Positions 15,123 to 39,843 of a DNA stretch of 64,000 nucleotides are shown piece after piece. The notes beneath the pieces were generated by a model, which was not told the origin of the DNA, did not search any database, and worked only from the letters and a program-made list of their open reading frames with translations. Location: the IMG/VR virus record IMGVR_UViG_3300030387_000070; one strand, given 5' to 3'. A program made the translations under genes and the position numbers. The first letter of the stretch is position 1. Every line of letters begins with the position of its first letter. This stretch comes from a virus.

Positions 15123-15158
15123 TTGACTTATATGGTTGTATCCTGTATAATATAGCTA
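15123..15158 (+). promoter_or_regulatory. promoter with reverse-oriented 21-bp motif (copy 1)
   Basis: TTGACT at 15123-15128, a 17-nt spacer, then TATAAT at 15146-15151. GTATCCTGTATAATATAGCTA occupies 15138-15158. Confidence 0.7.
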
Positions 15159-15194
15159 TGGAACGGAGCTACACTATTATAGAGGAGAAAGATT

Positions 15195-15614
15195 ATGGAC
15201 AACAATATTGACCCAAAGGTCGGAGAGGTTTGGTTGGTCGATTTGTCAAATGCGACAGGTCATCAGCAGCGCGGTATTCGACCGTTCGTTGTGACGAGCA
15301 ACAATAAGCGCAACTTCTTTAGCCCCACAATCAAAGGGAATCCATTGTCTTCCAGAATATACAAGCGCTCTCCGGTTCATGTTCTACTTTCAAAGGAAGA
15401 TTGTGATTTCTTAGAAGTTGACAGTATCGTTCTTTGTGAAGAGACTGACACGCTTAACAAAGGACAGTTCATCAAAAAACTTGGTGTCTTGTCGGAACGT
15501 CAGATGAATATGATTGCAATGGCAAGATGTAAGGATGAACCGTTTTTGCTCGCAGCATTCCTGAGCGGCGTACAACATACTATGGAATTTCAGAATTTTG
15601 CCGCATTTGCTTGA
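15195..15614 (+). CDS. PemK/MazF-family endoribonuclease toxin
   Basis: VGEVWLVDLSNATGHQQRGIRPFVVTS and ..VDSIVLCEETDTLNKGQFIKKLGVLSERQMNMI match the MazF/PemK pattern. GAGGAGAAAG upstream. Confidence 0.8.
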   Translation: MDNNIDPKVGEVWLVDLSNATGHQQRGIRPFVVTSNNKRNFFSPTIKGNPLSSRIYKRSPVHVLLSKEDCDFLEVDSIVLCEETDTLNKGQFIKKLGVLSERQMNMIAMARCKDEPFLLAAFLSGVQHTMEFQNFAAFA

Positions 15615-15667
15615 TTTTTTATAATGTTTAATGGTACACTACATATAATAAGAAGGAGTGTGCCACT

Positions 15668-16594
15668 ATGCTTACTGAAGAAAAAATCAACGCTTTTGCC
15701 GAAAGGTATTCTGATAAAAGCGGTAAGTTTGTTGTATCGACACTTAACAATGTTATGATCTATGAGGCCGAGTGTGGGTATGAGTTGTTTGATTTTACAA
15801 AAAATGATTTTGTAAAGATGTTTGCAAAATACAATTGGGTGAACTCAAGTCGTTCATTTAGAAATGTGAAATCAATAATCACTGGCTACATCAAAAGTGA
15901 AGATCGTACAAGTTTGTATGACTTGGCTGAATTTTCGGAAAATGACGTAAGTTCAGACGATATGTATGCAGACAAGTATTTTGCATCGGTTGATGAATTT
16001 GTTGACTTATTAAATAAATACGAAGAGCCATATCAGATTCGTATGAACGTGATTGCTGTATTATACTGGATCGGACTTACCGCTGGTGAAATTGTTAATC
16101 TAACAATCAATGATGTTGATTTTGAATCTCGTACTGTTCTCAATAGGACTGGTATTGATGCGAGGTTGATGGATATCATCAAGCAGTGTTATGAAATGAA
16201 ACAATATGATGCTCCCAACATGGGAGGATACAGAACGTTTTATGTCATAAACGGTGATTACATCCTTCGCAAAACAGAGGACAGGACTGGAGCAGACAGT
16301 GACCCAAAGATATCTACAAATACAATTCATACCTATTTTATGAGATTGAATGATATTCTCGAAAAAAGAGGTTGTTCTAAGATTTTGGACCAAAGACATT
16401 TAACAAGAAACAACGAGTATATCAAGGTTTATGACTATTGCAAAACTCATCCAGAATTTAATCTTGTAGAACTTAGCTTCGGAAATGGTAAAGATCCTCT
16501 TGCAGACATTATCGGAAGAAAGTGTAGCAAGGTAGCCTATATTAGCTTCCGGCAAGGATACAAGGGCTGGATTGAGTATTTCCATAAAAATTAA
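15668..16594 (+). CDS. tyrosine-recombinase-like protein, possibly catalytically degenerate
   Basis: IAVLYWIGLTAGEIVNLTINDVDF resembles the GLR..E box but has Thr in place of Arg. RHLTRN is a possible His-x-x-Arg box. The assignment is tentative. Confidence 0.35.
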   Translation: MLTEEKINAFAERYSDKSGKFVVSTLNNVMIYEAECGYELFDFTKNDFVKMFAKYNWVNSSRSFRNVKSIITGYIKSEDRTSLYDLAEFSENDVSSDDMYADKYFASVDEFVDLLNKYEEPYQIRMNVIAVLYWIGLTAGEIVNLTINDVDFESRTVLNRTGIDARLMDIIKQCYEMKQYDAPNMGGYRTFYVINGDYILRKTEDRTGADSDPKISTNTIHTYFMRLNDILEKRGCSKILDQRHLTRNNEYIKVYDYCKTHPEFNLVELSFGNGKDPLADIIGRKCSKVAYISFRQGYKGWIEYFHKN

Positions 16595-16598
16595 AAAT

Positions 16599-16621
16599 AG
16601 GGGCTTCGGCCCCTTAATTTT
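16599..16621 (+). terminator. rho-independent terminator
   Basis: AGGGGC-TTCG-GCCCCT hairpin followed by TAATTTT. Confidence 0.75.
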
Positions 16622-16628
16622 AACACGT

Positions 16629-16649
16629 TAGCTATATAATACAGGATAC
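16629..16649 (+). promoter_or_regulatory. 21-bp motif, forward (copy 2)
   Basis: TAGCTATATAATACAGGATAC, 22 nt upstream of ATG 16671. Contains TATAAT. The upstream sequence is A/T-rich with no clear TTGACA. Confidence 0.6.
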
Positions 16650-16670
16650 TTATTAGAAAGGGAAATGTAG

Positions 16671-18884
16671 ATGAGAACGCTTTTGCTGTTCCGTGGAGCA
16701 CCAGGTTGTGGGAAGTCCACCTATATTAAAGAGCATAATCTTGAGCAGTATGTATTGAATGCTGATACACTTCGACTTATGTGCCAGAGCGCACAGGAAA
16801 CACCTGCCGGGCGGATGGAGATCTCTCCGCAGAATGATGATGTTGTATGGGAGATGCTTTTCAAACTGCTTGAGGTGCGTATGAGTCATGGCGAGTTTAC
16901 CGTGATTGATGCAACGAATTCCAAGACGGTCGAAATGAATCGTTATAAGAATCTTGCAAAACAGTATCGTTATCGGATGTATGTTATTGACATGACGGAC
17001 CTTCCGATTGAGGAATGCAAACGAAGAAACGCTCAGAGAGAATGGCTGAATCGAGTTCCTGAAGCGGCCATTGATAAGATGTACGCTCGGTTTGCTACTC
17101 AAAAAGTTCCTTCTGGTGTGACAGTTCTTCCTTCTACTACGGATGTGATGTCCGATTTGAACTACTGTCCGAATGACTTCAACCAGTGGAAGAAGATCCA
17201 TATCATCGGTGATGTTCATGGCTGTTATACTTGTTTAAGTGAATACCTTGGTGAGATGAAGGACGACGAACTGTATATCTTCGTTGGTGATTATCTCGAT
17301 CGTGGCATCGAAAACGTTGAGGTATTCAAGTTCTTGTGTGATGTTGTAAATAACAACCGCAAGAATGTGATCCTTTTGGAGGGCAATCATGAGTGTTGGC
17401 TAAACAAGTGGGGGCATGATGAACCGGTTCAGAGTGAAGAGTTTGCAAACTACACTCGTCCGCAGCTCTTTAAAGCCGGTATTGACAAGAACACTGCTCG
17501 TAAGATCTATTCCAGAGTAGGCCAATGTGCCTACTTTGAGTATGATGGGAAGCGGTATTTCGTGAGCCACGGTGGTTTGAGTTATCTGCCTTATTTTCTT
17601 CCTTTCGTATCTGCTGATCAGATGATTAAAGGTGTAGGTCGCTATCCTGATATGCTAACCGTGGCTGAGTCTTGGGAAAAATCGATGCCGGATAGCTACA
17701 TTCAGATCTTCGGCCATCGAAATGTGCAGGATGTTCCTATTGATATGGGGCATCGGTGCTACAATCTCGAAGGAAAAATCGAGTTTGGTGGATATCTCCG
17801 TTGCGTTGAACTTGAACACGGTCAGTCAATCAAATGTGTAGAAACCAAGAACGATGTGTTCCGAAAAGAGGAGCCAAAGACTGAAACTGCCGTTGAAATG
17901 AAAACTGAGTTCGATAACGCAGAACTTGTTAGTAAGATGCGTCAAAGCAAATATGTGTTTGAGAAGCGATTCGGAGATATTTCTTCTTTCAACTTCTCTC
18001 GTGAAGCATTTTATAAGAAGCACTGGGATGAGGTTTCTACCAAAGCAAGGGGATTGTTCATTAACACAAAGACGAATAAGATTGTAGCTCGAAGCTATGA
18101 TAAGTTCTTTGCGGTTGATGAGCGGAATGAAACGAGAATTGGAAACCTACAGAACACTTTGAAGTTCCCAGTGACTGCATATCTAAAAGAGAACGGATTT
18201 CTTGGTATCATTTCGTATGATGCAGAACAGGATGGTCTGTTCATTGCAAGTAAATCCACTCCTGAAGGGCCTTTTGCAGATATGTTCCGAAAGATTATTA
18301 TGGATACTACTTCCGATGAAGATCGTAAGAATCTGAAGGAGGTTGCCAAGGAGCATGGCTCCATCATCTTTGAGGTTATTGATCCTGTGAATGATGCTCA
18401 TATCATAGAATACAAGAAACCGCACATTGTTTTGCTGGATGTTGTTGCAAACGATATGAATTTCAGTGTGATAGATTATGATGACTTGAAACGTGTCGCA
18501 GAAAAGTGTCATCTGCAGATTAAGGAGAAGGTTAAAACCTTTGAGAACTGGAGTGAATTCTATCCTTGGTATGAGGAAGTCATGAATGAGAACTATCTGT
18601 ACCATGACATCGAGCATGTTGAAGGCTTTGTTCTGAGAGATAGTAACAACTTTATGTTCAAGTTAAAGCTTCCTTATTATAAGCATTGGAAGTTCCTGCG
18701 TGGTGTTATGAAGAGCGTCCAGAAACGTGGCTATTACGAAAACACCGCCAAGCTGTTTACGGCTGAAGATAATTTGTTCTATGGTTGGATGCGTGAGCAA
18801 CGAGAGAAAGATCAAGAGGCGTTCAGCAAGAAGGGAATCATTCAGCTGCGAAATGAGTTCTATGCAAGTCAGCAGAAGAGTTGA
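16671..18884 (+). CDS. polynucleotide kinase-phosphatase fused to an RNA-ligase-type nucleotidyltransferase (Pnkp-like RNA repair enzyme)
   Basis: P-loop FRGAPGCGKSTY. Calcineurin-type phosphoesterase boxes IHIIGDVHGC, GDYLDRG, EGNHE and SHGG. C-terminal module with ARGLFINT..YDKFFAVDE and LKENGFLG (a Kx[DN]G-type motif I). The three-domain order matches bacterial Pnkp. Confidence 0.75.
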   Translation: MRTLLLFRGAPGCGKSTYIKEHNLEQYVLNADTLRLMCQSAQETPAGRMEISPQNDDVVWEMLFKLLEVRMSHGEFTVIDATNSKTVEMNRYKNLAKQYRYRMYVIDMTDLPIEECKRRNAQREWLNRVPEAAIDKMYARFATQKVPSGVTVLPSTTDVMSDLNYCPNDFNQWKKIHIIGDVHGCYTCLSEYLGEMKDDELYIFVGDYLDRGIENVEVFKFLCDVVNNNRKNVILLEGNHECWLNKWGHDEPVQSEEFANYTRPQLFKAGIDKNTARKIYSRVGQCAYFEYDGKRYFVSHGGLSYLPYFLPFVSADQMIKGVGRYPDMLTVAESWEKSMPDSYIQIFGHRNVQDVPIDMGHRCYNLEGKIEFGGYLRCVELEHGQSIKCVETKNDVFRKEEPKTETAVEMKTEFDNAELVSKMRQSKYVFEKRFGDISSFNFSREAFYKKHWDEVSTKARGLFINTKTNKIVARSYDKFFAVDERNETRIGNLQNTLKFPVTAYLKENGFLGIISYDAEQDGLFIASKSTPEGPFADMFRKIIMDTTSDEDRKNLKEVAKEHGSIIFEVIDPVNDAHIIEYKKPHIVLLDVVANDMNFSVIDYDDLKRVAEKCHLQIKEKVKTFENWSEFYPWYEEVMNENYLYHDIEHVEGFVLRDSNNFMFKLKLPYYKHWKFLRGVMKSVQKRGYYENTAKLFTAEDNLFYGWMREQREKDQEAFSKKGIIQLRNEFYASQQKS

Positions 18885-19001
18885 GTTAAAATAGACATTT
18901 TATCGTGATTTTCGTTAAAATAATTAACGAAGTATCGTGATATTTATTCCTCCGAAAATGCCATGCGTGGGGCTGACAGCCGGGAAAGACCGGCGATATA
19001 T

Positions 19002-19083
19002 GCCAAGGTGCTGCAAATGGGAGACAGGGCGAGCCCAAACCTCGCTGTGGAAACACATGCGGTTTCGAATACCGTCCTTGGCA
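19002..19083 (+). tRNA. tRNA-Leu(CAA), type II, CCA encoded
   Basis: Hand fold:
- acceptor GCCAAGG/CCTTGGC
- 3-bp D stem
- anticodon stem GCGAG/CTCGC with loop CCCAAAC
- extra arm TGTG-GAAA-CACA
- T arm GCGGT-TTCGAAT-ACCGT
- then A and CCA
Position 33 is C, which is unusual. Confidence 0.65.
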
Positions 19084-19114
19084 CCAGATAATTTTATGAA
19101 GAAAGGATGATTGC

Positions 19115-19798
19115 ATGGTTAATAGGGCAGAAGATCATATTGGTGATGTCTTTGATTTGTTTGAGGTGATTGATGTTATTCGAGATGAAAATAATATTCC
19201 ATCTTACAAATGTCGATGTAAAGAATGTGGATGGACAGGGCTAAAAAATATAGCTCAGGCGAGAGCGGTTAAAGTGTGTCGGCATAAACAATCGAGTGGC
19301 GATTATAGAAATTTTTCTACACGGTGGAAAAACAAAAGAATCGGACGAATCTTTCATGGAATGAAAGCAAGATGCTATGATGTTGATGATAAAAACTATA
19401 TAACGTATGGCATGAAAGGAATTTGTGTTTATCAAGAATGGTTGGATAATCCAAAGTCATTTGAAGAGTGGTCGTTGAAAAATGGATACAAAGATAGTTT
19501 GACAATCGATAGAATTGATTCGACAAAAGATTACTGTCCTGATAATTGCAGATGGATATCATTGGAAGATAATTCAAAATATAAATCCACAACTCGAATG
19601 TTAGAAGTAGATGGTGAAATACATACGGGACGTGATTGGGCGGCAGAATTAGGGCTTGGAACAAACACGATAAATAAATATGTAAGAAGATACGGAGAAG
19701 ATAATACAAAACAATTTATAAGAAGAGTATTAAAGGACCCGGATAAAGTGAATTCTCGACAAGGGAAACAAACTATCTATAATCTTTACATGAACTAA
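19115..19798 (+). CDS. HNH-type homing-endonuclease-like protein
   Basis: LTIDRIDSTKDYCPDNCRWISLEDNS is the HNH_3-like core. N-terminal CxxC zinc motif (CRCKECG). C-terminal HTH-like WAAELGLGTNTINKYVRRYG. Sits between two tRNA genes. Confidence 0.65.
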   Translation: MVNRAEDHIGDVFDLFEVIDVIRDENNIPSYKCRCKECGWTGLKNIAQARAVKVCRHKQSSGDYRNFSTRWKNKRIGRIFHGMKARCYDVDDKNYITYGMKGICVYQEWLDNPKSFEEWSLKNGYKDSLTIDRIDSTKDYCPDNCRWISLEDNSKYKSTTRMLEVDGEIHTGRDWAAELGLGTNTINKYVRRYGEDNTKQFIRRVLKDPDKVNSRQGKQTIYNLYMN

Positions 19799-19805
19799 AT
19801 TGAAA

Positions 19806-19845
19806 TGGCCCAGTGTAAAAACTGAGTACATTGGGCCAAATATTT
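19806..19845 (+). terminator. hairpin terminator after the HNH gene
   Basis: 12-bp stem TGGCCCAGTGTA / TACATTGGGCCA (one G-U pair) with a 9-nt loop, followed by an A/T-rich tail. Confidence 0.5.
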
Positions 19846-19851
19846 ATATGA

Positions 19852-19935
19852 GCACCCGTGGTGAAATTGGCAACCACGATGGACTTAAAATCCATTCCCG
19901 GTAACGGGTTGCGAGTCCGAGTCTCGCCGGGTGCA
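19852..19935 (+). tRNA. tRNA-Leu(UAA), type II
   Basis: Hand fold:
- acceptor GCACCCG/CGGGTGC
- anticodon stem ATGGA/TCCAT with loop CTTAAAA
- extra arm CCCG-GTAA-CGGG
- T arm GCGAG-TCCGAGT-CTCGC (non-canonical T loop)
No encoded CCA. Confidence 0.65.
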
Positions 19936-19940
19936 TATTT

Positions 19941-20013
19941 CTGGGCGTAGCGAAGTTGGCATCGCACCTGTTTTGGGAACAGGGGACCGCAAGTTCAAAT
20001 CTTGTCGCTCAGA
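19941..20013 (+). tRNA. tRNA-Pro(UGG), CCA encoded
   Basis: Hand fold:
- acceptor CTGGGCG/CGCTCAG
- D arm GCGA..TCGC
- anticodon stem CCTGT/ACAGG with loop TTTGGGA
- T arm GCAAG-TTCAAAT-CTTGT
- then A and CCA. Confidence 0.75.
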
Positions 20014-20019
20014 CCACTA

Positions 20020-20106
20020 CGAGGATTCGCCAAGTTGGTAAGGCAGCGGAATTTGACTCCGCCAGCGCTGAACAAGCGGTCACAGGTTCGAGTCCTGTAT
20101 CCTCGG
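20020..20106 (+). tRNA. tRNA-Gln(UUG)-like with a 19-nt extra arm
   Basis: Hand fold:
- acceptor CGAGGAT/ATCCTCG
- D arm TCGCCAAGTTGGTAAGGCA
- anticodon stem GCGGA/TCCGC with loop ATTTGAC
- variable region CAGCGCTGAACAAGCGGTC (CGCT/AGCG hairpin)
- T arm ACAGG-TTCGAGT-CCTGT
- discriminator G. Confidence 0.55.
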
Positions 20107-20113
20107 CTTATAT

Positions 20114-20195
20114 GCGGGTATGGTGTAACTGGCAGCCACGTCAGATTTAGGATCTGATGCCGAAAGGCGTGAGGGATCGTGCCCCTCTACCCGTA
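20114..20195 (+). tRNA. tRNA-Leu(UAG), type II, CCA encoded
   Basis: Hand fold:
- acceptor GCGGGTA/TACCCGT (G1-U72)
- anticodon stem TCAGA/TCTGA with loop TTTAGGA
- extra arm GCC-GAAA-GGC
- T arm GAGGG-ATCGTGC-CCCTC (atypical loop)
- then A and CCA. Confidence 0.55.
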
Positions 20196-20297
20196 CCACG
20201 GTCATAGAATGGTTGCGTACCGTTTGTTGATCTCCTTTACTATTATTCCCGGCTCGCCAGTGATGGTGCAGTAGTGCTTTGTAAGCTGGGTTTTCAT

Positions 20298-20369
20298 GCA
20301 GCGGTCGTACAACGGCTAGTACATCAGCCTTCCAAGCTGAGGATGAGGTTTCGACTACCTTTCGCTGCT
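20298..20369 (+). tRNA. tRNA-Gly(UCC), CCA encoded
   Basis: Hand fold:
- acceptor GCAGCGG/TCGCTGC
- D arm GTAC..GTAC
- anticodon stem TCAGC/GCTGA with loop CTTCCAA
- T arm GAGGT-TTCGACT-ACCTT
- then T and CCA. Confidence 0.75.
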
Positions 20370-20560
20370 CCAATCTTGTATGGGTAGGATCTTTAGCGGT
20401 CAGATCCAGCCGCGCCTGTGCAAGATACCACCCCGAAAGGGGCGAGATATAGGAAATGTGCATCGCTGTTATTCCTTCCTCGTCTATATGATATAGATGC
20501 AATAGTGTTTTATAAGGAAGGTCCCCAGTTGAATAGTTGCAGCTGTTTGACTGGTAATAT

Positions 20561-20634
20561 GGGATAGTAGCTCAGTTGGTCAGAGCTGGCGGCTCATAAC
20601 CGCTTGGTCGCGAGTTCAAATCTTGCCTGTCCCA
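20561..20634 (+). tRNA. tRNA-Met/Ile2(CAU)
   Basis: Hand fold:
- acceptor GGGATAG/CTGTCCC
- D arm GCTC-AGTTGGTCA-GAGC
- anticodon stem GGCGG/CCGCT with loop CTCATAA
- T arm GCGAG-TTCAAAT-CTTGC. Confidence 0.75.
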
Positions 20635-20742
20635 CTAACCCGATAGGGTGAATACATAGAATTTGCTAGAAATTTTGTTTTATGGGCGAATAAATAATAT
20701 GACGTTGATACGTCTATTATTTTTCGCTAATTTTTAAAGTTT

Positions 20743-20763
20743 TAGCTATGTAACACAGGATAC
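20743..20763 (+). promoter_or_regulatory. 21-bp motif, forward (copy 3)
   Basis: TAGCTATGTAACACAGGATAC, 18 nt upstream of GTG 20781. A/T-rich upstream sequence (CTAATTTTTAAAGTTT). Confidence 0.55.
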
Positions 20764-20780
20764 GAAAAGGAGGTGGTTTG

Positions 20781-21503
20781 GTGAAACATTATGGAAGTAT
20801 TTGCGAGATTGATGGTTCTAAGATTGAGCCTGTCTCGTGTATCACTGGTGGTTCACCTTGTTAGCCAAGACCTTTCTATTGCCGGCAAGCGGGCAGGTTT
20901 GGCTGGAGAACGGTCTGGTCTATTTATGGAAATGATTCGTGTGATAAAGGAGATGAGGGAGGCCACCAATGGAGAGTATCCAAAATTTGCAATCTGGGAA
21001 AACGTCCCAGGAGCCTTCTCTTCCAACAAAGGAGAAGACTTTAGATGTGTCTTGGAAGAATTTGCACGCATTGTCGAACCAAGTGTTTCAGTTCCTCGAC
21101 CTTCGGGAAGAGAATGTAAGTGGGCAAAAGCTGGAGCAATCGCCGGAAACGGATGGTCCTTGGCGTGGAGATTATTCGACGCTAGTGGTTGGGGTGTTCC
21201 CCAGCGTAGAAAACGTCTCGCGCTTGTCATGGACCTTAGAGGACAATGTGCCGGAAAAGTATTATTTGAGCAAACGGGCGTGTCAGGGGATCTTGATAAG
21301 AGCGTCAAGACGTGGAAAACCATTGCCCGACCTTCTGAAGGATGCACTGCAGGAGATGATTCATTGGTGGGAGATGAAAGATCCTACACTTTGAAGATTC
21401 GTTCTGGCTGCGCAGGGGGGGTAAAGGAGCACTCGTGCAGAATGAATTGAGTGCGACTCTCTCCACTTTGCAAGATCAGACTTTGTTCTGTGTAAAGCAT
21501 TAA
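20781..21503 (+). pseudogene. C5-cytosine DNA methyltransferase, catalytic part (motifs IV-VIII), frame-disrupted
   Basis: - GTG 20781 follows AAGGAGG by 7 nt and gives ..IEPVSCITGGSPC, then TAG at 20862.
- One frame over: QDLSIAGKRAGLAGERSGLF, WENVPGAFSS, GVPQRRKRLALV.
- Further homologous-looking pieces lie in the two other frames: ..LEDNVPEKYYLSKRACQGIL.. and GGKGALVQNELSATLSTLQDQTLF.
- At least 3 frame changes are needed to read all of this. Confidence 0.7.
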
Positions 21504-21515
21504 GGAGGGAACGGA

Positions 21516-22262
21516 TTGGAAAAAGAAACCAGTTTACATAATTTAAAACAAAATATTTCCACAGCGGTATTTGAAAGCCATAGTCAGGATGCTCGATACA
21601 CTCAGCAAGGTAATACAAGCCCAGCTTGTACAGCTCAATGGGGTACTGGTGGTAATAATATGCCGCTTGTCGCTGAAAAGAAAGCCTTTGCTATGCAGCG
21701 TATTGGCGAATATAAGGAAAGCGAACAGGCCAGCACAATGAAATCTCGTGATTATAAAGATGCAACTGATCTTGTAGTTGAAGAGAAAGAGGTGAAATGT
21801 GCTGGGTTTCCACTTGGATTTAGAGCAGAAAATACGAAATGCTACGATGAAGTGGCTACTACGCTTTGCAATGGTACGCGGCCTGGATTTACTACTGGAT
21901 GTGTTCTCAATTGGATTGTTCGCCGCTTGACTCCTGTTGAGTGTGAACGGTTACAGGGTTTTCCTGATGGATGGACCGATATTGGCGAGTGGGTTGACGA
22001 AAATGGTAAAAAGCACAAGCCAGCCGATTCTCCTCGGTACAAGGCGCTCGGCAATTCGATTGCTTTGCCTCAGTGGTATTGGATTTGCCAGAAGATGAAA
22101 CCGTATATTGGTGAAAATCCTACGCTTGGCAGTCTTTTCGATGGAATCGGTGGCTTTCCGCTTGTCTTTGAAAGTACGTATGGTGATGGTACTGCTATCT
22201 GGGGATCTGAAATTGAATCGTTTTGTGTTGCGGTGACAAAGAAGCATTTTCCAGAAGACTAA
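21516..22262 (+). CDS. C5-cytosine DNA methyltransferase, target-recognition and motif IX-X part with a C-terminally appended motif I-II
   Basis: TTG start 7 nt after AAGGAGG. Contains WGTGGNNMPLV, VRRLTPVECERLQGFPDGWT and RYKALGNSIALP. It then continues into LGSLFDGIGGFPLVFE..IWGSEIESFCVAVTKKHFPED*, which is the FxGxGG AdoMet motif normally found at the N-terminus. Confidence 0.75.
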   Translation: MEKETSLHNLKQNISTAVFESHSQDARYTQQGNTSPACTAQWGTGGNNMPLVAEKKAFAMQRIGEYKESEQASTMKSRDYKDATDLVVEEKEVKCAGFPLGFRAENTKCYDEVATTLCNGTRPGFTTGCVLNWIVRRLTPVECERLQGFPDGWTDIGEWVDENGKKHKPADSPRYKALGNSIALPQWYWICQKMKPYIGENPTLGSLFDGIGGFPLVFESTYGDGTAIWGSEIESFCVAVTKKHFPED

Positions 22263-22781: not shown

Positions 22782-22798
22782 AAATGGGGTGATGCCAT

Positions 22799-24270: not shown

Positions 24271-24291
24271 TAGCTAAGTAATACAGGATAC
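24271..24291 (+). promoter_or_regulatory. 21-bp motif, forward (copy 4)
   Basis: TAGCTAAGTAATACAGGATAC, 37 nt upstream of ATG 24328. Confidence 0.5.
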
Positions 24292-26193: not shown

Positions 26194-27409
26194 ATGGATA
26201 ATACAGTTCATGACGCTCAAAGATTGAAGGAGCTTCAGGCACTCCCTCTTGAGCGAAAGATTCAAATCACTCAAAATCGCATCCAGGAATGGTATATGCA
26301 CTATGATGGCGGTGTGTACGTAAGCTTCTCCGGTGGTAAGGATTCTACTGTACTTGCTCATTTGACAAAGCAGCTGTTCCCAGATGTCCCGCTTGTGTTT
26401 AGTAATACAGGCTTGGAATACTCGTCAATCCAGAAATTTGCACGAAACGCAGATGCTGTTTTTGTTTATCCCAAGATGGGATTTAGTGATGTGGTCTCTA
26501 CATATGGTTATCCTCTTATCTCTAAAGAAGTGGCTGAAGCGATTTACTACGCTAGACGAATCAGAAATAGCGGCGCAGCCACCATGAGAGAGAGAGAGAG
26601 TAAGAACAACTCTCAGGAAAAAACAAGAACTTCTGGGTTTAAGGATGAACTGTCTGGGAGGTGTCTTTAGCAACCCGTGGCTTTACGATGAAACAGGAGT
26701 CTTTCAAGGAAACAGACGGACGATTCTACTTGGTAATGAACCGGGAGCTGAAATGCAGGCTGGAACAAAATCCATGTTCAATAAGGAAAAATGGTTGCCA
26801 GCAACACAAGAACTTCCGTTTGCAATTTCTCATTACTGCTGTTCAGTTATGAAAAAAGGTCCGATGAAGAAGTACGCAAGGGCAACCAAGCGTAAACCTA
26901 TTATTGGAACGTTGACTGATGAAAGTCGTGTTCGCAAGCAAGCTTGGATTCGACATGGGTGTAATGCTTTTGATAGCAAGTCTCCAACAAGTCAGCCTAT
27001 GAGTTTTTGGACTGAGCAGGACGTGCTCACTTTCATCAAACAGTCAGGAATTCAAATTGCAGATGTCTATGGCGATATTGTTCCTACGAGTGATAAGCCG
27101 GATGCGCCATTGTGCTGTACTGGGTGTGATCGTACCGGATGCACGTTTTGCGGATTTGGAGCTCACAACAAGAATGACAATAGATTCTCAACTCTTGCAG
27201 AACTTGACCCAAAGAAGTACGAGTATAGTATGAATGGTGGTCAATGGGTAGACAATCCAAAATATGATGCAACTGCACCAGAGTATGATGGTGTATGGAA
27301 GAATTGGAACCCGAAGAAAATCTGGGTGCCAAGCAAAGAAGGTCTTGGACTGAGAAAAGTTTTCGATATGTTTAATGAACTGTATCCAAACAACAAAATT
27401 CAATATTAA
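26194..27409 (+). pseudogene. PAPS-reductase-like PP-loop protein, frame broken
   Basis: YVSFSGGKDSTVLAHL is the PP-loop SGGKDS motif. The reading frame changes by +1 between track ORFs 26194-26670 and 26645-27409. The second frame is already open from 26588 (ERERVRTTLRKKQELLGLRMNCLGG..). Confidence 0.65.
26586..26600 (+). repeat. (GA)7G dinucleotide tract
   Basis: GAGAGAGAGAGAGAG, read directly. It lies where the two frames of the PAPS-reductase-like gene overlap. Confidence 0.95.
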
Positions 27410-33305: not shown

Positions 33306-33323
33306 TGGTGAAAGGAGAATAGA

Positions 33324-36300
33324 ATGCCAAGTAGTCTACACACACACTCGAATTACAGTCTACTAGATGGGTACTCTTCTCCTGAAGAAAATCTAAAAAG
33401 AGCATCAGAACTTGGTTTGAAAGCCATTGCCATTACGGAACATGGTGAGGTAACAAGCTGGCCGTACTATTCTGAACTAAAAGGCAAGTATCCGAATGTC
33501 AAACTTCTTTATGGTATCGAGGCATACGAGTGCGAAGATAGGGAAGTCAAGGACAAGAATAGTAAATATTGGCATTTAATCATTATTGCCAAGAACGAAG
33601 CTGGTCGTCAGGCAGTCAATCGCTTATCTACACTCGGTCATCTTCATGGCTTTTACAGCCGTCCTCGTATCACAAAAGAGGATATCGCTAAGGAAGATAC
33701 GAATAATTTGATTATCCTGTCTGCTTGTTTGGCGAGTAGGCTGTCAAGAACGGATGATTATGACACTTGTGTCAAGCTGGTTCAAGAGTATAAGAGCTTA
33801 TTCCCTCACTATTATCTTGAGGTTCAGGCTCATGCAAACAGTGAACAAGCAAAATATAATCAGAAAATCATGCGGTTGGCAAACGATACTCATACAAAAG
33901 TAGTCGTCACAAACGATGTTCATGCTGCTACCAAAGAGGATCTTTATTATCAAGATTATTTCCTTCGTATCGCTCATGATACGGAAACCGCCACAGAAAT
34001 CTATGAAGGGTGCTACTTCATGTCTCGTGATGAGCAGCATAGAGCCCTTGATAATCAGATTGGATACGATGCGGCAGAATGGTGTATCAATAATACTGAC
34101 GAGGTTGCTGATCTGTGTGATGATGTGGATATGCCTTGGCATGAACCGGAACTTCCCAAAATTGAGATTCCGCCACAGTATTCTAATTCGGCAGCTTATC
34201 TGAAAGACCTTGTAAAAGAGGGATGTAAGAAACGTAGCATTGATAAGTTTGATGTAGAAAAGCAGAAAATCTATCGAAAACGTGTTGATGATGAGCTGTT
34301 TGTCATTGAGAAGAAAGACTTCTGTGACTACTTTTTGATTCTGGTTGATTACATCAACTGGTGTAAGAAAAATGATGTCATTGTTGGCCCTGGTCGTGGT
34401 TCTGCTGCTGGTTCTCTTGTATGTTACCTGATTGGCATTACGCAGCTTGATTCCATCAAGTATGAACTTGACTTCGGACGATTCCTTACCATTGAGCGAA
34501 AAGACCTTCCTGACGTTGATGTTGATGTCAGTGACCGTGCCAAGGTTGTCGAGTATCTGACACAGAAGTATGGAGAAGATCGAGTAGTTCAGGTTATGAA
34601 CATCGTGTACACTACTCCGGTTACTTCAATTCAAGATGTTGGTAAGGTGCTCGGTTTCCCGTATGCCGAGATAAGAAAAATCAGTGAGAAGTTCGTTCAA
34701 AAGACATGGAAAGATTGCCTTGAAGCCAACACAGAAGTAGCTGAGAATCCAAAATATAAGGAACTACTTGATATTGCAAGTCATATCAATGGTCGCCCAC
34801 GAGGATATGGTATCCATGCTGGCGGTGTTATTGTTTGCCGACATCCTTATTACGAGTATATCGGTATCCGGCATGGTACTGACGGAGAGCACGTTATTTC
34901 CGTTGATAAGGTGATGGACGAGAAGATTGGACTTGTTAAGTTTGATATTCTTGGTGTTGCGTCGCTGGTTGCCATTGATGAAGCGAAGCGTGAGGATAAT
35001 ATTCCAGACTGGGAAATTGATATCAACAATCCTGAATTTGAAAACGACAAGGCAACTTACGATTTGATTTGCTCCGGTAAGACAGACAATCTATTCCAGA
35101 TTGAATCGTCCGGCATGAAAGATCTGGTTGCGCAGCTTCAACCTAGGTCGATTGAAGAACTATCCGCTTTGATTGCTCTTTATCGCCCTGATGCAATGCC
35201 GTCCATTCCTACATACGTTGACTGCAAGTATCATCCCGAACACATTCATTATTTCCATCCTGATATGGAACCAATTTTCCGCAGTACCTATGGCGTGAAC
35301 ATCTATCAGGAACAGAGTATGAAGCTCACAAAGGTCTTTGGTGGCCGAAGCGATGCTGGTGCTGATAGAATGCGTAAGTGCTTGGCAAAGAAAAAACCTG
35401 AGAAGGTCAAGGAAGAGGTAGAACTTCTTCACGATGAAATTCTTGCAAATGGATACGATAAAGCAACCGCTGAGTATATTTGTAACGAGTTGTCAACGAA
35501 GGGCGGCTATGGTTTCAATAAGTGTATTTCTGGCAACACGAAGTTGTGGAGAATGAGAAGTGGTCGGTTTGAGCCTACTGTTGCAGAAATGTACAAGATT
35601 CGCAATGATAGGAAGTTTGCTATCTTGACAAATCACACACATCTTAGGGACAAATATAGACGATACGGTTACGGTAGTGCGTTGTCAATGTGTGATGATG
35701 GACGCATTCGGATGAATAAAATTATTGATATCAAGTATTCTGGATATCGAATGCTGTATCGTGTAACAACTGAGACCGGTGCGACCATTGAATGTACAGA
35801 TAATCATAAATTCCCGACAACTGATGGCATTAAGTTGCTTTCTGATATGAGAATTGGTGATGAGTTATATGAGATTGGTGCTTATGAGGTTTGCAGAAAC
35901 AAGTATAATCTGACGGATGGAAATTTCGAAAGCAATTTGCCGAAGCCGGGACAAATGGGGTTCCAGACGAAGGAATTTAGTGCGAATCGTCTGTTTGAAG
36001 AGACGAAAGAAAAGAATAGACTGAAAAGAAGCCCATGTGAAATTTGCGGTAGAGAATATTCCGAAGATGCTCGTTTTGAAGTACACCACAAAGATTTTGA
36101 CCATACGCATAATGTACCTGATAACTATACTTGGTGCTGTGCATCGTGTCACAAGAAACTTCATTACGCTCACGGGCGAGTAAAACAGTATGAAAAGGGC
36201 ATCCCGTCAAAGACCGCTAAGATTATTTCTATTGAGGAAATTGGTTTTGATGATGTCTATGATGTGACAATGGATGCTCCGAATCACAATTTTGTAGTGT

Positions 36301-37340
36301 CAACTGGTATTGTAACTTGCAACTCTCATTCACAAGCCTATGCTGACATCTGTCTCCAGACTGCATATTTGAAAGCCCACCATCCGCTTGCATTCTTTAA
36401 GGCTATGCTGAACCTGAATAAAGCAAAGGTCGGCAAGGTCAACAAGATTATGGTGGATGCACGCAGCTTTGATATTCAGATTCTTCCGCCGAGTATCAAT
36501 CGTTCCGGCATGGACTTTACTGTGTCAAATGGTAAAATCCTGTTTGGCTTATCTGCTATCGGTGGTATTGGCGATACGCTTGCTGAAACTATCATTGCAG
36601 AACGAGATAGAAATGGAAAATTTAAGGGACTTGATGATTTCACGAGTCGTGTTCGTGCAACGAAGGCGCAGATTATTGCATTGGTTAAATCCGGTGCGAT
36701 TCCTACAAAGAACAAACGAATATTCTTGGAAAAGTACATTACCAGCGGTCTGGAACAATCTGAGTTTAAGCCAGTCAGTACACTTCCTACCAAGGCAGTT
36801 TTGCTGAGTAAGTGGGGTATTGATACAGAGCATTATAAGGTTGGTAAAAAGGTTGACAAAGAAACCGTCTTACGGATCTATAATGAAAAGCGCCGTGTCG
36901 TACATGAAACCGAGAAGCTGAAAAAGAAAGAAGCGTATATGGACGAGCAGACCACAAAATATCTACAAGATGAAGAACTTTGGGAGTTCCAGACTTTGCA
37001 GACCTTTATCAGTGACCCGAATCCTTTCGAGAAGGCATTTACTTATATCAAGGATTTCTCTGAAATCGAAGAAGGTGATTCTTGTGTACTGGTTGGTATT
37101 ATCGCAAAGATTCAGAAGAAGAAAACGAAGACTGGTATGCAGTTTGCATTTGTAAATCTGTATTCTGGCGATGGTATTATTGAGCTGACCGTATGGCCGA
37201 GAGTCTTGTCGGATTATCAGGATTTGATTGTAAAGGGAAGTCAGGTGGCTGTGCTTGGAAAGAAGGAAGATGAATCGCACGTTATTGCAAGCAACTTCAA
37301 ACCTTACAAGCAGTGGTTGCATGATAGAGAGATAGCGTAA
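33324..37340 (+). CDS. dnaE: DNA polymerase III alpha subunit (DnaE-type) interrupted by an intein
   Basis: PHP N-terminus (LHTHSNYSLLDG, ITEHG). GPGRGSAAGSLVCYLIGIT, ERKDLPDVDVDV, HAGGV. GYGFNK|C...N|SHSQAYA..AYLKAHHP. Confidence 0.9.
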   Translation: MPSSLHTHSNYSLLDGYSSPEENLKRASELGLKAIAITEHGEVTSWPYYSELKGKYPNVKLLYGIEAYECEDREVKDKNSKYWHLIIIAKNEAGRQAVNRLSTLGHLHGFYSRPRITKEDIAKEDTNNLIILSACLASRLSRTDDYDTCVKLVQEYKSLFPHYYLEVQAHANSEQAKYNQKIMRLANDTHTKVVVTNDVHAATKEDLYYQDYFLRIAHDTETATEIYEGCYFMSRDEQHRALDNQIGYDAAEWCINNTDEVADLCDDVDMPWHEPELPKIEIPPQYSNSAAYLKDLVKEGCKKRSIDKFDVEKQKIYRKRVDDELFVIEKKDFCDYFLILVDYINWCKKNDVIVGPGRGSAAGSLVCYLIGITQLDSIKYELDFGRFLTIERKDLPDVDVDVSDRAKVVEYLTQKYGEDRVVQVMNIVYTTPVTSIQDVGKVLGFPYAEIRKISEKFVQKTWKDCLEANTEVAENPKYKELLDIASHINGRPRGYGIHAGGVIVCRHPYYEYIGIRHGTDGEHVISVDKVMDEKIGLVKFDILGVASLVAIDEAKREDNIPDWEIDINNPEFENDKATYDLICSGKTDNLFQIESSGMKDLVAQLQPRSIEELSALIALYRPDAMPSIPTYVDCKYHPEHIHYFHPDMEPIFRSTYGVNIYQEQSMKLTKVFGGRSDAGADRMRKCLAKKKPEKVKEEVELLHDEILANGYDKATAEYICNELSTKGGYGFNKCISGNTKLWRMRSGRFEPTVAEMYKIRNDRKFAILTNHTHLRDKYRRYGYGSALSMCDDGRIRMNKIIDIKYSGYRMLYRVTTETGATIECTDNHKFPTTDGIKLLSDMRIGDELYEIGAYEVCRNKYNLTDGNFESNLPKPGQMGFQTKEFSANRLFEETKEKNRLKRSPCEICGREYSEDARFEVHHKDFDHTHNVPDNYTWCCASCHKKLHYAHGRVKQYEKGIPSKTAKIISIEEIGFDDVYDVTMDAPNHNFVVSTGIVTCNSHSQAYADICLQTAYLKAHHPLAFFKAMLNLNKAKVGKVNKIMVDARSFDIQILPPSINRSGMDFTVSNGKILFGLSAIGGIGDTLAETIIAERDRNGKFKGLDDFTSRVRATKAQIIALVKSGAIPTKNKRIFLEKYITSGLEQSEFKPVSTLPTKAVLLSKWGIDTEHYKVGKKVDKETVLRIYNEKRRVVHETEKLKKKEAYMDEQTTKYLQDEELWEFQTLQTFISDPNPFEKAFTYIKDFSEIEEGDSCVLVGIIAKIQKKKTKTGMQFAFVNLYSGDGIIELTVWPRVLSDYQDLIVKGSQVAVLGKKEDESHVIASNFKPYKQWLHDREIA
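35523..36323 (+). mobile_element. intein (267 aa) with HNH endonuclease domain inside DnaE
   Basis: Inserted in the conserved GYGFNK-SHS box. Begins CISGNTKLW, has block B IECTDNHKF, an HNH core CEICG..FEVHHKDFDHTHNVPDNYTWCCASCHKKLH, and ends NHNFVVSTGIVTCN followed by Ser. Confidence 0.85.
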
Positions 37341-37352
37341 GAGGGTTATAAA

Positions 37353-39683
37353 GTGGCAGATAAGAAATTTAATGAAAATATGATCCGTTGCTACATTAGG
37401 ATAAAACGAGTCTTTTATCCGAAAGATGGGAAGGAGGTGGAGCCCGGCGGCTTCGCCACTTTCTCTGCCGAAGTGATAAAAGTCAAGCAGGGGAACCCCA
37501 TTATGAGCCGATACAGTGACCTCCGACTGAAAGGCAACGTCCCTAGCCTTGATATGAATAAGACTTATTCGTTCTGTGGTGAGTATGTTCACCATGAAAA
37601 GTTTGGGGACCAGTATAAAATCGTCTATATGAACGAGTTCCAAGAGATTACTGACCCAGAAGAACAGAAAAGTTTTCTCCATTTTATCTTAACAGAACAT
37701 CAGTTTGAGATGCTTTACGAAGCATTTGATAATCCGTATGAGATCATCAAGAACGGTGATATCAAGTCTCTTTGCACTGTTAGTGGTATCACAGAAGGTC
37801 GAGCACAGAAAATTATCGATGCCTTTGAAAATAACATTGATAACAGCGAAGCATACACGAAGCTGATTGAGTATGGTTTGACTCCAAGTGCAATCGGAAA
37901 ACTTGTTCATCAATATCACGGTGCAGACACTCTTGTGAAGAAAATTGAAGAGAATCCTTATGTTCTGATTGACGATGTATATGGGATTGGATGGAAGAAA
38001 GCTGACGCTCTTGCTTTGAATATGGGATTGAAGCCAAACTCTCAGTTCCGAATTGAAGCTTACGTCATGCATTTTCTTGCTGATCGTGCCGAAGAAGGCA
38101 ATTCTATCATCCCGGCAAACCAGACAATCAATAGTTGCATTAAGGAACTTGGCTTGGATGAGGGTGACCAAGAGGTTATCAAGAGAGCACTTTTCCATCT
38201 GCACGATGTCCGCGAAACGCTTTGGTGGAGTGATGATCGTCAGGAATTTGCTTTAACAAGAGTGTGGAATCTGGAAAATAAGATTTCAAAGGAAATTAAG
38301 CGTCTGGCGGATGCACCTGTCGAGCCGATTGGTCGAAACATGGATGCTGCAATCGACGAAGCAGAACATGCTCTTGGCATCGAGTACACTGAGGAGCAGA
38401 GAGATGCTATTAAAAAGGTATGCTCTAGCAACATCTGTATCTTAACAGGCTACGGCGGAACTGGTAAAAGTACCGTTGTCGCTGGTGTTCTAAAGGTTCT
38501 TCGTGGTAAGTCTTTTGCTCAGACTGCACTTTCTGGTCGTGCCGCAGCTCGTATGCAGGAGATTACTGGTCAGGATGGAAAGACCATTCACCGTCTTCTT
38601 GGCTACGACATCGAGAACGGTGGGTTTGTTCACGATAAGGACAATCCTCTGGAAGAAGACATTATCATTCTGGATGAGACCTCTATGGTTGGAGCTCAGT
38701 TGTTCTATGACTTGATTCAGGCTATCGAGACCGGAAAGCGATTCATCATGATTGGCGATGACGGCCAGCTTGAGAGTATTGGTATGTGCAACATCTTCAA
38801 GGATATGCTTGCCTCCAAGGTTGTTCCGGTTGCTCGCTTGACGAAGATTCACCGTCAGGCTGCTAAGTCAGCGATTATCACAGAGAGCATCAAGGTTCGT
38901 AATGCCACGCAGTTGGTTCCTTACGGTTGGGCTGGTAATGAGATTCGTGGTGAGCTGCGTGATTTGGAGCTAGATATCTACAAGGATGCAGGCGAGTCGT
39001 TTAACCACATCATCAATCAATACCGTACCTTATATAATAAGGTAGGGAATGACAGCGCAAAGATTCAGATTGTACTTCCGCAGAAGCTCCGTGGTAGCAT
39101 TTGCACCTACGAGGTGAATAACGCCATTCAGGAAATTGTAAATCCGAGTCGTGGTCAGGCAGAAGCAAAGGTCACAATCTACGGTGATGGCAAGGATAGA
39201 GTGTACACTCTGCGTGAGGGCGATCAGGTCATTATCAACAAGAATAACTATGAGCTTCATACATACAATCTCAAGACAAAGAAAAAGGAAGAGAAGTGTC
39301 CGGTGTTCAACGGAAACCGTGGCATTATCCGAAAGATTGAGAGTAGTTTTATTCTGGTTGACTTTGACCAGTGGGGAACTATCTTCATTCCTCATTATTT
39401 TGGTGGGAACAACATCTGGGCAACACTTGAACTCGCTTATGCTTTGAGTTGTCATAAACTGCAAGGTAGCGAAGCTCCGTATGTAATTGTCGGCATGGAC
39501 AACTCTGCATACCTGATGTTGACGAGAGAATGGCTCTATACGGCCATCACTCGTGCCAAGAAGTATTGTGTGATTTGCGCCGAAACTCATGCTCTTGATC
39601 GGGCTGTAAAGACTTCAAGAGTGCCATATAAGCGGACGTTCTTGAAGGAATTTTTACGGAAAGAATTTTCAGAAAAGCGTTGA
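37353..39683 (+). CDS. RecD-like SF1 DNA helicase
   Basis: Walker A ILTGYGGTGKST and Walker B IIILDETSMV. C-terminal YALSCHKLQGSEAPYVIV..TAITRAKK. Confidence 0.8.
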   Translation: MADKKFNENMIRCYIRIKRVFYPKDGKEVEPGGFATFSAEVIKVKQGNPIMSRYSDLRLKGNVPSLDMNKTYSFCGEYVHHEKFGDQYKIVYMNEFQEITDPEEQKSFLHFILTEHQFEMLYEAFDNPYEIIKNGDIKSLCTVSGITEGRAQKIIDAFENNIDNSEAYTKLIEYGLTPSAIGKLVHQYHGADTLVKKIEENPYVLIDDVYGIGWKKADALALNMGLKPNSQFRIEAYVMHFLADRAEEGNSIIPANQTINSCIKELGLDEGDQEVIKRALFHLHDVRETLWWSDDRQEFALTRVWNLENKISKEIKRLADAPVEPIGRNMDAAIDEAEHALGIEYTEEQRDAIKKVCSSNICILTGYGGTGKSTVVAGVLKVLRGKSFAQTALSGRAAARMQEITGQDGKTIHRLLGYDIENGGFVHDKDNPLEEDIIILDETSMVGAQLFYDLIQAIETGKRFIMIGDDGQLESIGMCNIFKDMLASKVVPVARLTKIHRQAAKSAIITESIKVRNATQLVPYGWAGNEIRGELRDLELDIYKDAGESFNHIINQYRTLYNKVGNDSAKIQIVLPQKLRGSICTYEVNNAIQEIVNPSRGQAEAKVTIYGDGKDRVYTLREGDQVIINKNNYELHTYNLKTKKKEEKCPVFNGNRGIIRKIESSFILVDFDQWGTIFIPHYFGGNNIWATLELAYALSCHKLQGSEAPYVIVGMDNSAYLMLTREWLYTAITRAKKYCVICAETHALDRAVKTSRVPYKRTFLKEFLRKEFSEKR

Positions 39684-39715
39684 CAATCATGTTCGTATCC
39701 TGTATAATATAGCTA
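39680..39715 (+). promoter_or_regulatory. promoter with reverse-oriented 21-bp motif (copy 5)
   Basis: TTGACA at 39680-39685 (overlaps the helicase stop codon), a 17-nt spacer, then TATAAT at 39703-39708. GTATCCTGTATAATATAGCTA occupies 39695-39715. Confidence 0.7.
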
Positions 39716-39753
39716 TGAAAAGTCTCCATCTCGGAGGCTTAAAATTCTCTCTT

Positions 39754-39774
39754 TAACTATATAATACAGGATAC
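39754..39774 (+). promoter_or_regulatory. 21-bp motif, forward (copy 6)
   Basis: TAACTATATAATACAGGATAC. Confidence 0.55.
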
Positions 39775-39785
39775 GGGAAAGGAAT

Positions 39786-39817
39786 GGCTTGCTCGTAATG
39801 GCAAGCCTTTCTTTATT
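39786..39817 (+). terminator. rho-independent terminator-like hairpin
   Basis: GGCTTGC (39786-39792) pairs with GCAAGCC (39801-39807), followed by TTTCTTTATT. Confidence 0.6.
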
Positions 39818-39822
39818 CATTA

Positions 39823-39843
39823 CAACTATATAACACAGGATAC
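39823..39843 (+). promoter_or_regulatory. 21-bp motif, forward (copy 7)
   Basis: CAACTATATAACACAGGATAC, 14 nt upstream of ATG 39857 (AAGGAGG lies between). Confidence 0.55.

Follow-up and report, generated by a model that had tools for sequence, protein, structure and literature searches.

Which regulator acts through a short element that recurs seven times between the genes of a large gut prophage, and why does the element come in two orientations, each tied to its own layout? The element lies in a 64,000-nt stretch of viral DNA (IMG/VR virus record IMGVR_UViG_3300030387_000070; "the window" throughout), which comprises the right ~61 kb of an SPbeta-like prophage together with a host flank. 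An initial annotation made from the sequence alone had proposed a regulator site, a promoter of a phage-specific sigma factor or RNA polymerase, or a conserved 5' leader. Taking together sequence comparisons, a modelled structure and analogy with known phages, we consider it likely that the 21-bp element is the operator set of the prophage's own MrpR/SroF-type repressor, for which a 308-amino acid (aa) protein is the candidate.

Seven intergenic copies of one asymmetric element

The element is real and non-random. Its consensus is TARCTA-N6-ACAGGATAC, in which the six middle bases are A/T-rich, and the 21 bp are asymmetric and non-palindromic. The window has exactly seven occurrences of the 9-mer core ACAGGATAC, five on the plus strand (16641, 20755, 24283, 39766 and 39835) and two on the minus strand (15138 and 39695), against a mean of 0.36 in dinucleotide-preserving shuffles, none of which (0/100) reached seven. 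All seven copies, spread over 25 kb, are intergenic in a prophage part of which only ~5.7% is intergenic. No further core-carrying copy was found in the window at up to six mismatches to the 21-mer, one-mismatch cores elsewhere in the window all lacked the TAGCTA half, and a single six-mismatch chance match to the 21-mer occurred at 16053. The copies are as follows.

15138..15158, minus strand: copy 1, reverse type, reading GTATCCTGTATAATATAGCTA on the plus strand, in the promoter of the mazF-like/mrpR-like operon
16629..16649, plus strand: copy 2, forward type, 21 nt 5' of the start of the Pnkp/RNA ligase gene
20743..20763, plus strand: copy 3, forward type, 15 or 27 nt 5' of the C5 DNA methyltransferase gene (GTG 20779 or ATG 20791)
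24271..24291, plus strand: copy 4, forward type, 36 nt 5' of the Sak4-like ATPase gene, the first in the replication module
39695..39715, minus strand: copy 5, reverse type, within the 39680 promoter
39754..39774, plus strand: copy 6, forward type, ~40 nt past the predicted start of the 39680 promoter
39823..39843, plus strand: copy 7, forward type, 13 nt 5' of the start of the DNA ligase gene

The hexamers of the five forward copies are TATAAT, TGTAAC, AGTAAT, TATAAT and TATAAC, whereas the reverse copies are one base off the reverse complement of the forward consensus and thereby read TATAAT on the plus strand. The initial annotation had the seven copies, their hexamers and this one-base difference right, and its assignment of the genes downstream of the forward copies (Pnkp-type RNA ligase, C5 methyltransferase, Sak4-like ATPase and DNA ligase) was likewise borne out.

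For the comparison with relatives, 80 IMG/VR loci were anchored on the MazF-like protein encoded beside copy 1 and six contigs were added through the repressor protein, giving 86 loci in whose selection the motif was not used; the hexamer tallies given below for the orthologues of 15138, 16629 and 20743 likewise come from loci gathered without reference to it. In the 86 orthologues the reverse box is near-invariant, while the 9 nt separating it from the -35 are free to vary; the forward box behind the repressor gene is likewise kept, between variable bases on both sides. Because the box stays constant where the adjoining bases do not, the conserved unit is 21 bp. Copy 3 has 62 orthologues and copy 4 about 22, orthologous copies keep their orientation in all relatives, and extra classes of box sites occur there.

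Reverse copies lie in predicted host-type promoters

Each of the two reverse copies falls within the top promoter-like match of its region.

15123..15151, plus strand: sigma-A-type promoter TTGACT-17-TATAAT, 11/12 consensus positions, predicted to drive the mazF-like and mrpR-like genes
39680..39708, plus strand: sigma-A-type promoter TTGACA-17-TATAAT, 12/12 consensus positions, its -35 overlapping the end of the RecD2-like gene

Among the seven copies a -35 is confined to these two, where, as had been noted before, it is perfect (TTGACT, TTGACA) and stands at 17-nt spacing. At reverse copy 1 the hexamer is TATAAT in 86/86 orthologues and the -35 is invariant; the 39680 promoter is kept in 17 distinct orthologous sequences. 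Within both promoters the ACAGGATAC half lies in the spacer, the hexamer region forms the -10, and the TAGCTA half falls at the predicted start site. The reverse copies, which extend across the spacer, the -10 and the start region of promoters close to the consensus, would therefore fit classical operators, and the earlier suggestion that the reverse type represses early promoters served by a host sigma factor agrees with this arrangement. Two other readings of these sites were ruled out: an extended -10, given that the TG abuts the hexamer rather than standing one base away, and a leaderless small open reading frame (ORF) that would begin with the ATG following the reverse copies, a codon that is not conserved.

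The reverse copies also bear on the proposal that the element serves as the promoter of a phage sigma factor or of a phage RNA polymerase, be it YonO-like or some other enzyme of the single-subunit type. The length and conservation of the element resemble those of such promoters, and relatives encode a 930-aa YonO-like single-subunit RNA polymerase (PF05183; contig L017, 1340-4132, minus strand). The YonO of SPbeta uses a single late promoter, the sequence of which is still to be determined (PMC5467207). On this proposal, however, transcription from the reverse copies would run into the 3' ends of the genes upstream, and these copies coincide with consensus host promoters. The YonO-like gene of the relatives itself stands behind a forward box directly 5' of it (L017, 4163, minus strand), and so could not supply its own first expression. 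Moreover, the copies precede early and replication genes, and within a short mosaic segment the element and the repressor allele change together, as described below. No sigma factor, activator or RNA polymerase gene was found among the genes of the window, and we regard a phage-polymerase or phage-sigma promoter as very improbable.

A candidate repressor gene between copies 1 and 2

Copies 1 and 2 flank a two-gene operon encoding a MazF-like toxin and the 308-aa protein, which is preceded by a small gene with a promoter of its own.

14777..15103, plus strand: gene for a 108-aa protein, just 5' of the repressor operon, with its own promoter TTGACG-16-TATAAT at 14707-14734
15195..15614, plus strand: MazF/PemK-like toxin gene, first in the operon (Pfam PF02452, E 2e-19; PHROG 'MazF-like growth inhibitor')
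15668..16594, plus strand: gene for the 308-aa MrpR/YopR/SroF-family protein, candidate master repressor, with a tyrosine-recombinase fold by profile and model

Public records label the 308-aa protein 'integrase' or 'tyrosine recombinase', and on its own it also gives weak matches to tyrosine recombinases. A direct BLASTP comparison with the SPbeta protein YopR was uninformative (E 0.13), as was hhalign with a shallow profile. An exhaustive search recovered relatives at 20-37% identity, and the resulting family profile aligned with YopR over 259 columns (hhalign, 97.9% probability, E 4.8e-13); PF22822, MrpR_N_CB, was matched by 23 of the 35 family members. Modelling with AlphaFold gave a predicted local distance difference test (pLDDT) score of 59.7 on close homologues only and of 89.5 with the deep alignment that came from the representative search. 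When this model was compared with the PDB by Foldseek, the top seven matches were all SroF, YopR or MrpR (E 3e-8 to 8e-7), the best being SroF-DNA 9rd5, SroF-Sar 9rgl, YopR 8bpz/8bj6 and MrpR 8a0a, and ordinary recombinases ranked below them by a factor of at least 200 (E 2e-4 or worse). The position of the first catalytic arginine (GLRxxE) is occupied by Thr138, which is invariant in the family and is aligned with an alanine in SPbeta YopR. Judged by its family profile and modelled fold, the 308-aa protein is a distant homologue of MrpR/YopR/SroF. MrpR, which is the same as YopR and SroF, is the master repressor of SPbeta, and binds a box named SPBRE, for SPbeta repeated element, at ten promoter regions, including those of its own operon, the replication module and yonP-yonO (PMC10516654).

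The 108-aa protein had no Pfam or PHROG match and no recognisable DNA-binding domain. By its position and its divergence together with the repressor (see below) it is a candidate for a Sar-like antirepressor, and it is also a rival candidate for binding the box. A LexA box beside its gene was considered and rejected: GAAC-N4-GTTC gave only chance-level matches in the window, none of them near this gene.

The MazF-like toxin shares its operon with the repressor, and no obvious antitoxin gene was seen. Since the arbitrium system of phi3T works through the host MazE-MazF pair (PMC10769878), a phage MazF in the repressor operon makes a notable parallel. No arbitrium genes were seen in the window, and no AimR homologue was identified.

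The protein and the box change together

Three metagenome contigs (L138, L139 and L140) carry a syntenic phage with an alternative repressor allele, B. Its MazF is 92-94% identical to that of the window (94% in L138), whereas its repressor is only 34-35% identical, and nucleotide homology breaks over the repressor gene as well as over the 108-aa gene. Both orthologous boxes of the allele-B phage read AGTATAGTAWACAGAATTT, that is, AGTATAGTAWACAGAAT(TT), with orientations unchanged. The one 5' of mazF occurs as the reverse complement of AGTATAGTATACAGAATTT in a TTGACA-17-TATACT promoter kept at the same place, and the other, AGTATAGTAAACAGAATTT, stands in forward orientation after the repressor gene and its terminator in L138 and L139, at the place of copy 2. 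Aligned with each other, the A and B boxes have TA..TATA..A.ACAG.AT in common and differ at about six of the 21 positions. IMG/VR searches for further allele-B phages or more distant relatives found none, and scanning with a 15-nt B-type pattern gave nothing beyond single chance matches. The allele-B phage also has a shorter RNA ligase in place of the Pnkp-type enzyme.

This joint change is, at the level of sequence, the strongest link between the 308-aa protein and the element, and we infer from it that the protein binds the box. The idea of an orientation-independent regulator site thus stands, in that an asymmetric 21-bp box flanks an MrpR-like gene and changes with it; the accompanying idea that the site overlaps a -10 throughout does not, the -10 not being kept at the forward copies.

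Forward copies follow hairpins and precede ribosome-binding sites

Both in the window and in relatives, every forward copy stands directly 5' of a ribosome-binding site and is aimed at the downstream gene. The hairpins preceding these copies are listed here.

16599..16614, plus strand: terminator-like hairpin AGGGGC-TTCG-GCCCCT followed by TAATTTT, after the repressor gene and 14 nt before copy 2
20701..20714, plus strand: hairpin with a T-run, after the tRNA cluster and 28 nt before copy 3
39720..39740, plus strand: hairpin AAGTCTCC-loop-GGAGGCTT, between copies 5 and 6
39786..39807, plus strand: strong intrinsic-terminator-like hairpin of 8 pairs followed by TTTCTTTATT, 15 nt before copy 7

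Thus four of the five forward copies trail a hairpin or terminator-like stem by 13-28 nt (stem ends at 16614, 20714, 39740 and 39807), copy 4 at 24271 having no strong terminator upstream, and all three intergenic terminator-like hairpins with a T-run between 11 and 52 kb have a forward copy next to them. The 16599-16614 hairpin is present in relatives and in the allele-B phage; the stem at 39720-39740 is near-constant (two single-base variants in 17 sequences), while its loop varies among relatives. A module made of a reverse-type promoter, a terminator, a forward copy and a gene recurs in the relatives and mirrors the window at 39680-39856. Upstream of copy 3, tRNA promoters are predicted at 18892 and 19756.

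It could be asked whether the forward copies are promoters in their own right, the element being an operator at the reverse copies and, at the forward ones, the core of -35-less middle promoters with a start within ACAGGATAC, promoters that the host polymerase would use either aided by a phage-encoded factor or, weakly, unaided. Such a dual purpose would suit the uniform orientation of the forward copies just 5' of ribosome-binding sites, their place after hairpins (four of five), which is the usual place for a new promoter, and the TATAAY-like form of most of their hexamers; it would also give the ligase gene a promoter beyond the 39786 terminator, which otherwise severs it from the 39680 promoter. 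Conversely, a promoter scan of the window and relatives found no -35 and no TG extension at forward copies, and three of the five forward hexamers in the window (TGTAAC, AGTAAT, TATAAC) miss key positions of a -10. In orthologues of 16629 the hexamer is mostly TATAAC, with a final T in 19/85, and in those of 20743, where TATAAT, TATAAC, TGTAAC and TATTAC all occur, the final T is present in 27/62; position -7 is accordingly C in most orthologues, compared with TATAAT in 86/86 at the reverse copy. A TAnnnT hexamer is altogether absent from the forward box of allele B2 (L139). In relatives, one forward copy directly follows a separate TTGAAT-17-TGgTATAAT promoter, where it is a leader site, and a reverse-oriented copy lies just 5' of the -35 of that promoter. 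Neither an activator nor a sigma factor or polymerase is encoded in the window, as stated above. The initial annotation had held that a plus-strand -10 is always kept, which these tallies contradict, and that the forward copies activate or define middle promoters, of which we found no indication; we consider the dual purpose rather unlikely.

The position of the forward copies in or near 5' untranslated regions raises a further explanation, namely that the element acts as RNA, as a leader motif that governs processing or translation or is recognised by an RNA-binding protein. The leader of the ligase gene indeed folds better than shuffled controls (z = -2.85). Against this, two copies are on the opposite strand and 5' of the predicted transcription start and so could not yield an identical RNA, the conservation is strand-symmetric with sharp limits at 21 bp, and Rfam gave no match to the element, its only hits in the window being six tRNAs. 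A conserved 5' leader, also proposed at the outset, is in our view the faintest of prospects.

Two side observations concern the same leaders. GGAGGCTT is found twice: it forms the 3' arm of the 39720-39740 hairpin and, at 39847-39854, the ribosome-binding site of the ligase gene; the 5' arm AAGTCTCC can pair with either, and the minimum-free-energy fold picks the ribosome-binding site, which may amount to an anti-Shine-Dalgarno or attenuator arrangement. In addition, an AACGT-N4-ACGTT-type palindrome, followed by an A-rich stretch and a ribosome-binding site, is repeated in intergenic regions of this phage family (984, 11028, 15089 and 16679 in L138; 20701-20714 and 50739-50808 in the window) and may represent a further regulatory site or else a weak terminator.

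How the repressor could use two orientations

SroF of phi3T is a monomer that nearly encircles a 26-bp non-palindromic box and recognises the central A-tract in part by its shape; the boxes vary from phage to phage, the repressors being phage-specific (bioRxiv 10.1101/2025.11.27.690993). If the 308-aa protein clamped its box as a monomer, as SroF does, a single box would be usable in either orientation, since it is a long non-palindromic site that the monomer clamps; the A/T-rich central hexamer can be explained by the preference of a SroF-type repressor for narrow-groove A/T DNA. At the reverse copies, the bound repressor would exclude RNA polymerase from the host promoters, and at 15138 this would make the mazF-like/repressor operon self-limiting. 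For the forward copies, which we favour as leader operators or roadblocks with a weak-promoter role as a lesser possibility, we infer that bound repressor halts polymerases that set out from the repressor operon, the tRNA promoters and the 39680 promoter, a roadblock reinforcing a leaky terminator. In the lysogen this would silence the Pnkp, methylase, replication and ligase units.

A more specific version, which we put forward as a tentative possibility, is that the orientation itself is functional: the reverse form would plug a promoter, while the forward form, 13-15 nt after a leaky terminator, would be a polar roadblock. By holding polymerase on the U-tract it would turn partial into complete termination, the mirror image of antitermination by AimR, and once the repressor was gone, polymerases would read through, in a cascade, into the Pnkp, methylase, replication and ligase units. 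In a variant of this version the forward copies would be true middle promoters that need a phage factor.

Several observations weigh against the repressor reading in general or against its roadblock part. The identity of the 308-aa protein to MrpR/SroF is only ~15-18%, and its own match to the MrpR N-terminal domain in Pfam is sub-threshold (20.6 vs 27 bits). The joint change was seen in one alternative allele group only (three contigs, two orthologous positions). Other genes of L138 have diverged as well, namely those for the 108-aa protein (23%) and for a 275-aa integrase-like protein at 9136-9963 (44%), and because both diverge, either could be the binder. With a strong terminator at 39786-39807 between the 39680 promoter and the ligase gene, a roadblock alone requires read-through or antitermination, and the similar promoter-terminator-copy module of the relatives meets the same problem. 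Finally, the orientation of all forward copies with their downstream genes is what a promoter would also predict.

The divergence of these two other genes leads to a specific alternative, in which the box is bound by the 108-aa or the integrase-like protein as a lytic switch that shuts the repressor-operon promoter at the reverse copies and promotes read-through at the forward ones. The break of nucleotide homology over the 108-aa gene is in line with this, and there is a precedent in AimR, the DNA-binding antiterminator of aimX in phi3T and SPbeta, whose site lies at a set distance 3' of a terminator with no promoter downstream (PMC10769878); the forward copies start 13-15 nt after three of the hairpins. 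Nevertheless, the distribution of boxes, at the operon itself, before replication genes and, in relatives, before the polymerase gene, matches that of MrpR and SPBRE, and it is the MrpR/SroF family for which monomeric binding to long asymmetric boxes has been demonstrated. The 108-aa protein, as noted, has no recognisable DNA-binding domain, and in phi3T and SPbeta the small co-evolving gene near the repressor encodes an antirepressor, which binds the repressor and not DNA. We therefore judge another allele-linked binder improbable, and retain the 308-aa repressor as the likely one.

Genome context and neighbouring genes

Genes up to ~61.1 kb are all on the plus strand, and the order YorF-like, Sak4-like ATPase, helicase, primase-like, RecJ-like, DnaE-like and RecD2-like corresponds to the yorF-yorL order of SPbeta. 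The last identified phage gene before the junction is an excisionase-like helix-turn-helix gene (60807-61037). From ~61148 onward the window matches prophage-free metagenome contigs (L341-L346) at 99.9% identity, and the junction lies within a rubrerythrin gene, in its 3' part, beside a copper-exporting ATPase gene (61436-63994, minus strand). The host DNA has ~57% guanine plus cytosine (GC), the phage ~40%. Related contigs of ~135 kb are common in IMG/VR and in human-gut assemblies. A nucleotide search of the DnaE-RecD2 region against GenBank phages returned only 60-nt chance matches, and the GTDB representative genomes contained no relative of the 308-aa protein and only eight singletons fitting the box pattern, roughly as many as chance would give. 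One of the eight is a perfect 21-mer, with an exact TAGCTATATAATACAGGATAC and matching flanks, at 3649-3668 of contig L124, which belongs to a Faecalibacterium metagenome-assembled genome, has 56% GC and is without phage similarity. This box, which could be a chance occurrence, host-borne or a remnant, is the only hint to the host genus.

Several genes near the forward copies have features of their own. The Pnkp-type tRNA repair enzyme (kinase-phosphatase-RNA ligase, 737 aa; 16671-18884) adjoins a cluster of seven tRNA genes at 19002-20635 (three Leu, plus Pro, Gln, Gly and Met), and the two together look like a counter-measure against anticodon nucleases. The C5 methyltransferase is divided between two ORFs 65 nt apart (20791-21450 and 21516-22262), which match the N- and C-terminal Pfam halves, and is a single 460-aa gene in L138. 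Two overlapping ORFs, 26194-26670 and 26645-27409, each match a different part of the PAPS-reductase domain, which could reflect a frameshift, a programmed shift or a split gene. The DnaE-like polymerase (33324-37340) contains an intein (Pfam Intein_splicing, residues 747-998), and a ToxN-type toxin is encoded in relatives (L017, 11067-11564, minus strand).

A second intergenic motif, ACAAAA(A/G)GATGTGT (roughly ACAA-N4-WTGT), is found at 12165-12180, 14687-14707 and 14716-14736, the latter two being tandem copies 5' of the 108-aa gene, with the second over the TTGACG-16-TATAAT promoter. As the motif (at 12168, 14690 and 14719) resembles SPBRE by eye at ~13/18 positions, it was considered as the true MrpR box, and ruled out on the grounds that its first copy is unchanged in the allele-B phage and that no more than three copies exist; another regulator, possibly of the host, may act there. 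In a more distant MrpR-like phage (contig L347, 8297-8419), a perfect LexA-type box, GAACATATGTTC, occurs together with a palindromic operator 5' of a 76-aa gene, two genes ahead of the repressor gene, a layout that by analogy fits the published SOS-controlled antirepressor arrangement. The repressor boxes of L347 were not resolved by repeat finding or by eye, its sequence being too A/T-rich.

Implications

To our knowledge, MrpR/SroF-type repressors, characterised in 2023-2025, have been described only in Bacillus arbitrium phages. The sequence data make it most likely that the present system is of this known kind, in a new gut-phage lineage and with a new box sequence, which would extend the same repressor logic to an abundant family of ~135-kb human-gut prophages. 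It would do so with features unlike those of SPbeta, namely two orientation classes and forward copies coupled to terminators; the link between orientation and layout, with forward boxes after terminators, suggests that repression may be coupled to termination. The A and B repressor alleles and their boxes in syntenic phages form a natural specificity pair for studying how this fold reads DNA, and could be used for predicting mutual immunity among these prophages. In addition, two strong promoters overlapped by putative repressor boxes, together with the box consensus, should allow better prophage annotation.

Comparison with known systems

Promoters of single-subunit phage RNA polymerases (T7-like) are ~23 bp long and have one orientation relative to genes. 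A conserved element of ~20 bp repeated before blocks of genes is reminiscent of them, but they do not coincide with host promoters as the reverse copies do. The operators of lambda CI and Cro are short, palindromic, clustered and bound by dimers. Sites over promoters, an autoregulated repressor gene and mosaic immunity cassettes would be common to both systems, whereas the boxes described here are long, asymmetric, dispersed over at least 25 kb and probably bound by a monomer. With the AimR sites the forward copies at 16629, 39754 and 39823 share the layout of a site shortly after a terminator; AimR, however, has a tetratricopeptide repeat fold and promotes read-through, and the opposite effect is expected here of what is likely a repressor.

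SroF of phi3T provides the best structural match to the modelled 308-aa protein (9rd5), and the phage-specific pairing of repressor and box is paralleled by the A/B pair. The two systems differ in the length of the box, 26 bp there and 21 bp by conservation here, and in its sequence. They also differ in the SroF-Sar antirepressor switch of phi3T, for which the window offers only the candidate 108-aa gene, with no LexA box found.

For SPbeta itself we derived the box ACAAAWAATATGTATAT from the ten reported MrpR targets and located 11 good copies, all oriented like their genes; some lie in TAGACA-17-TATAAT promoters, three abut ribosome-binding sites, and one promoter stands between two boxes. 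This box is unrelated in sequence to TARCTA-N6-ACAGGATAC, and its single orientation contrasts with the two found here. Furthermore, the operon here opens with a MazF-like toxin gene, and the host is a gut bacterium of ~57% GC and not a Bacillus. The general plan is nonetheless strikingly alike: a multi-copy, non-palindromic, intergenic box in the early half of a ~135-kb prophage, placed at the promoter of the repressor operon, before the replication module and before a phage polymerase gene, with some boxes over sigma-A promoters and others by ribosome-binding sites, and a putative repressor with the tyrosine-recombinase fold.

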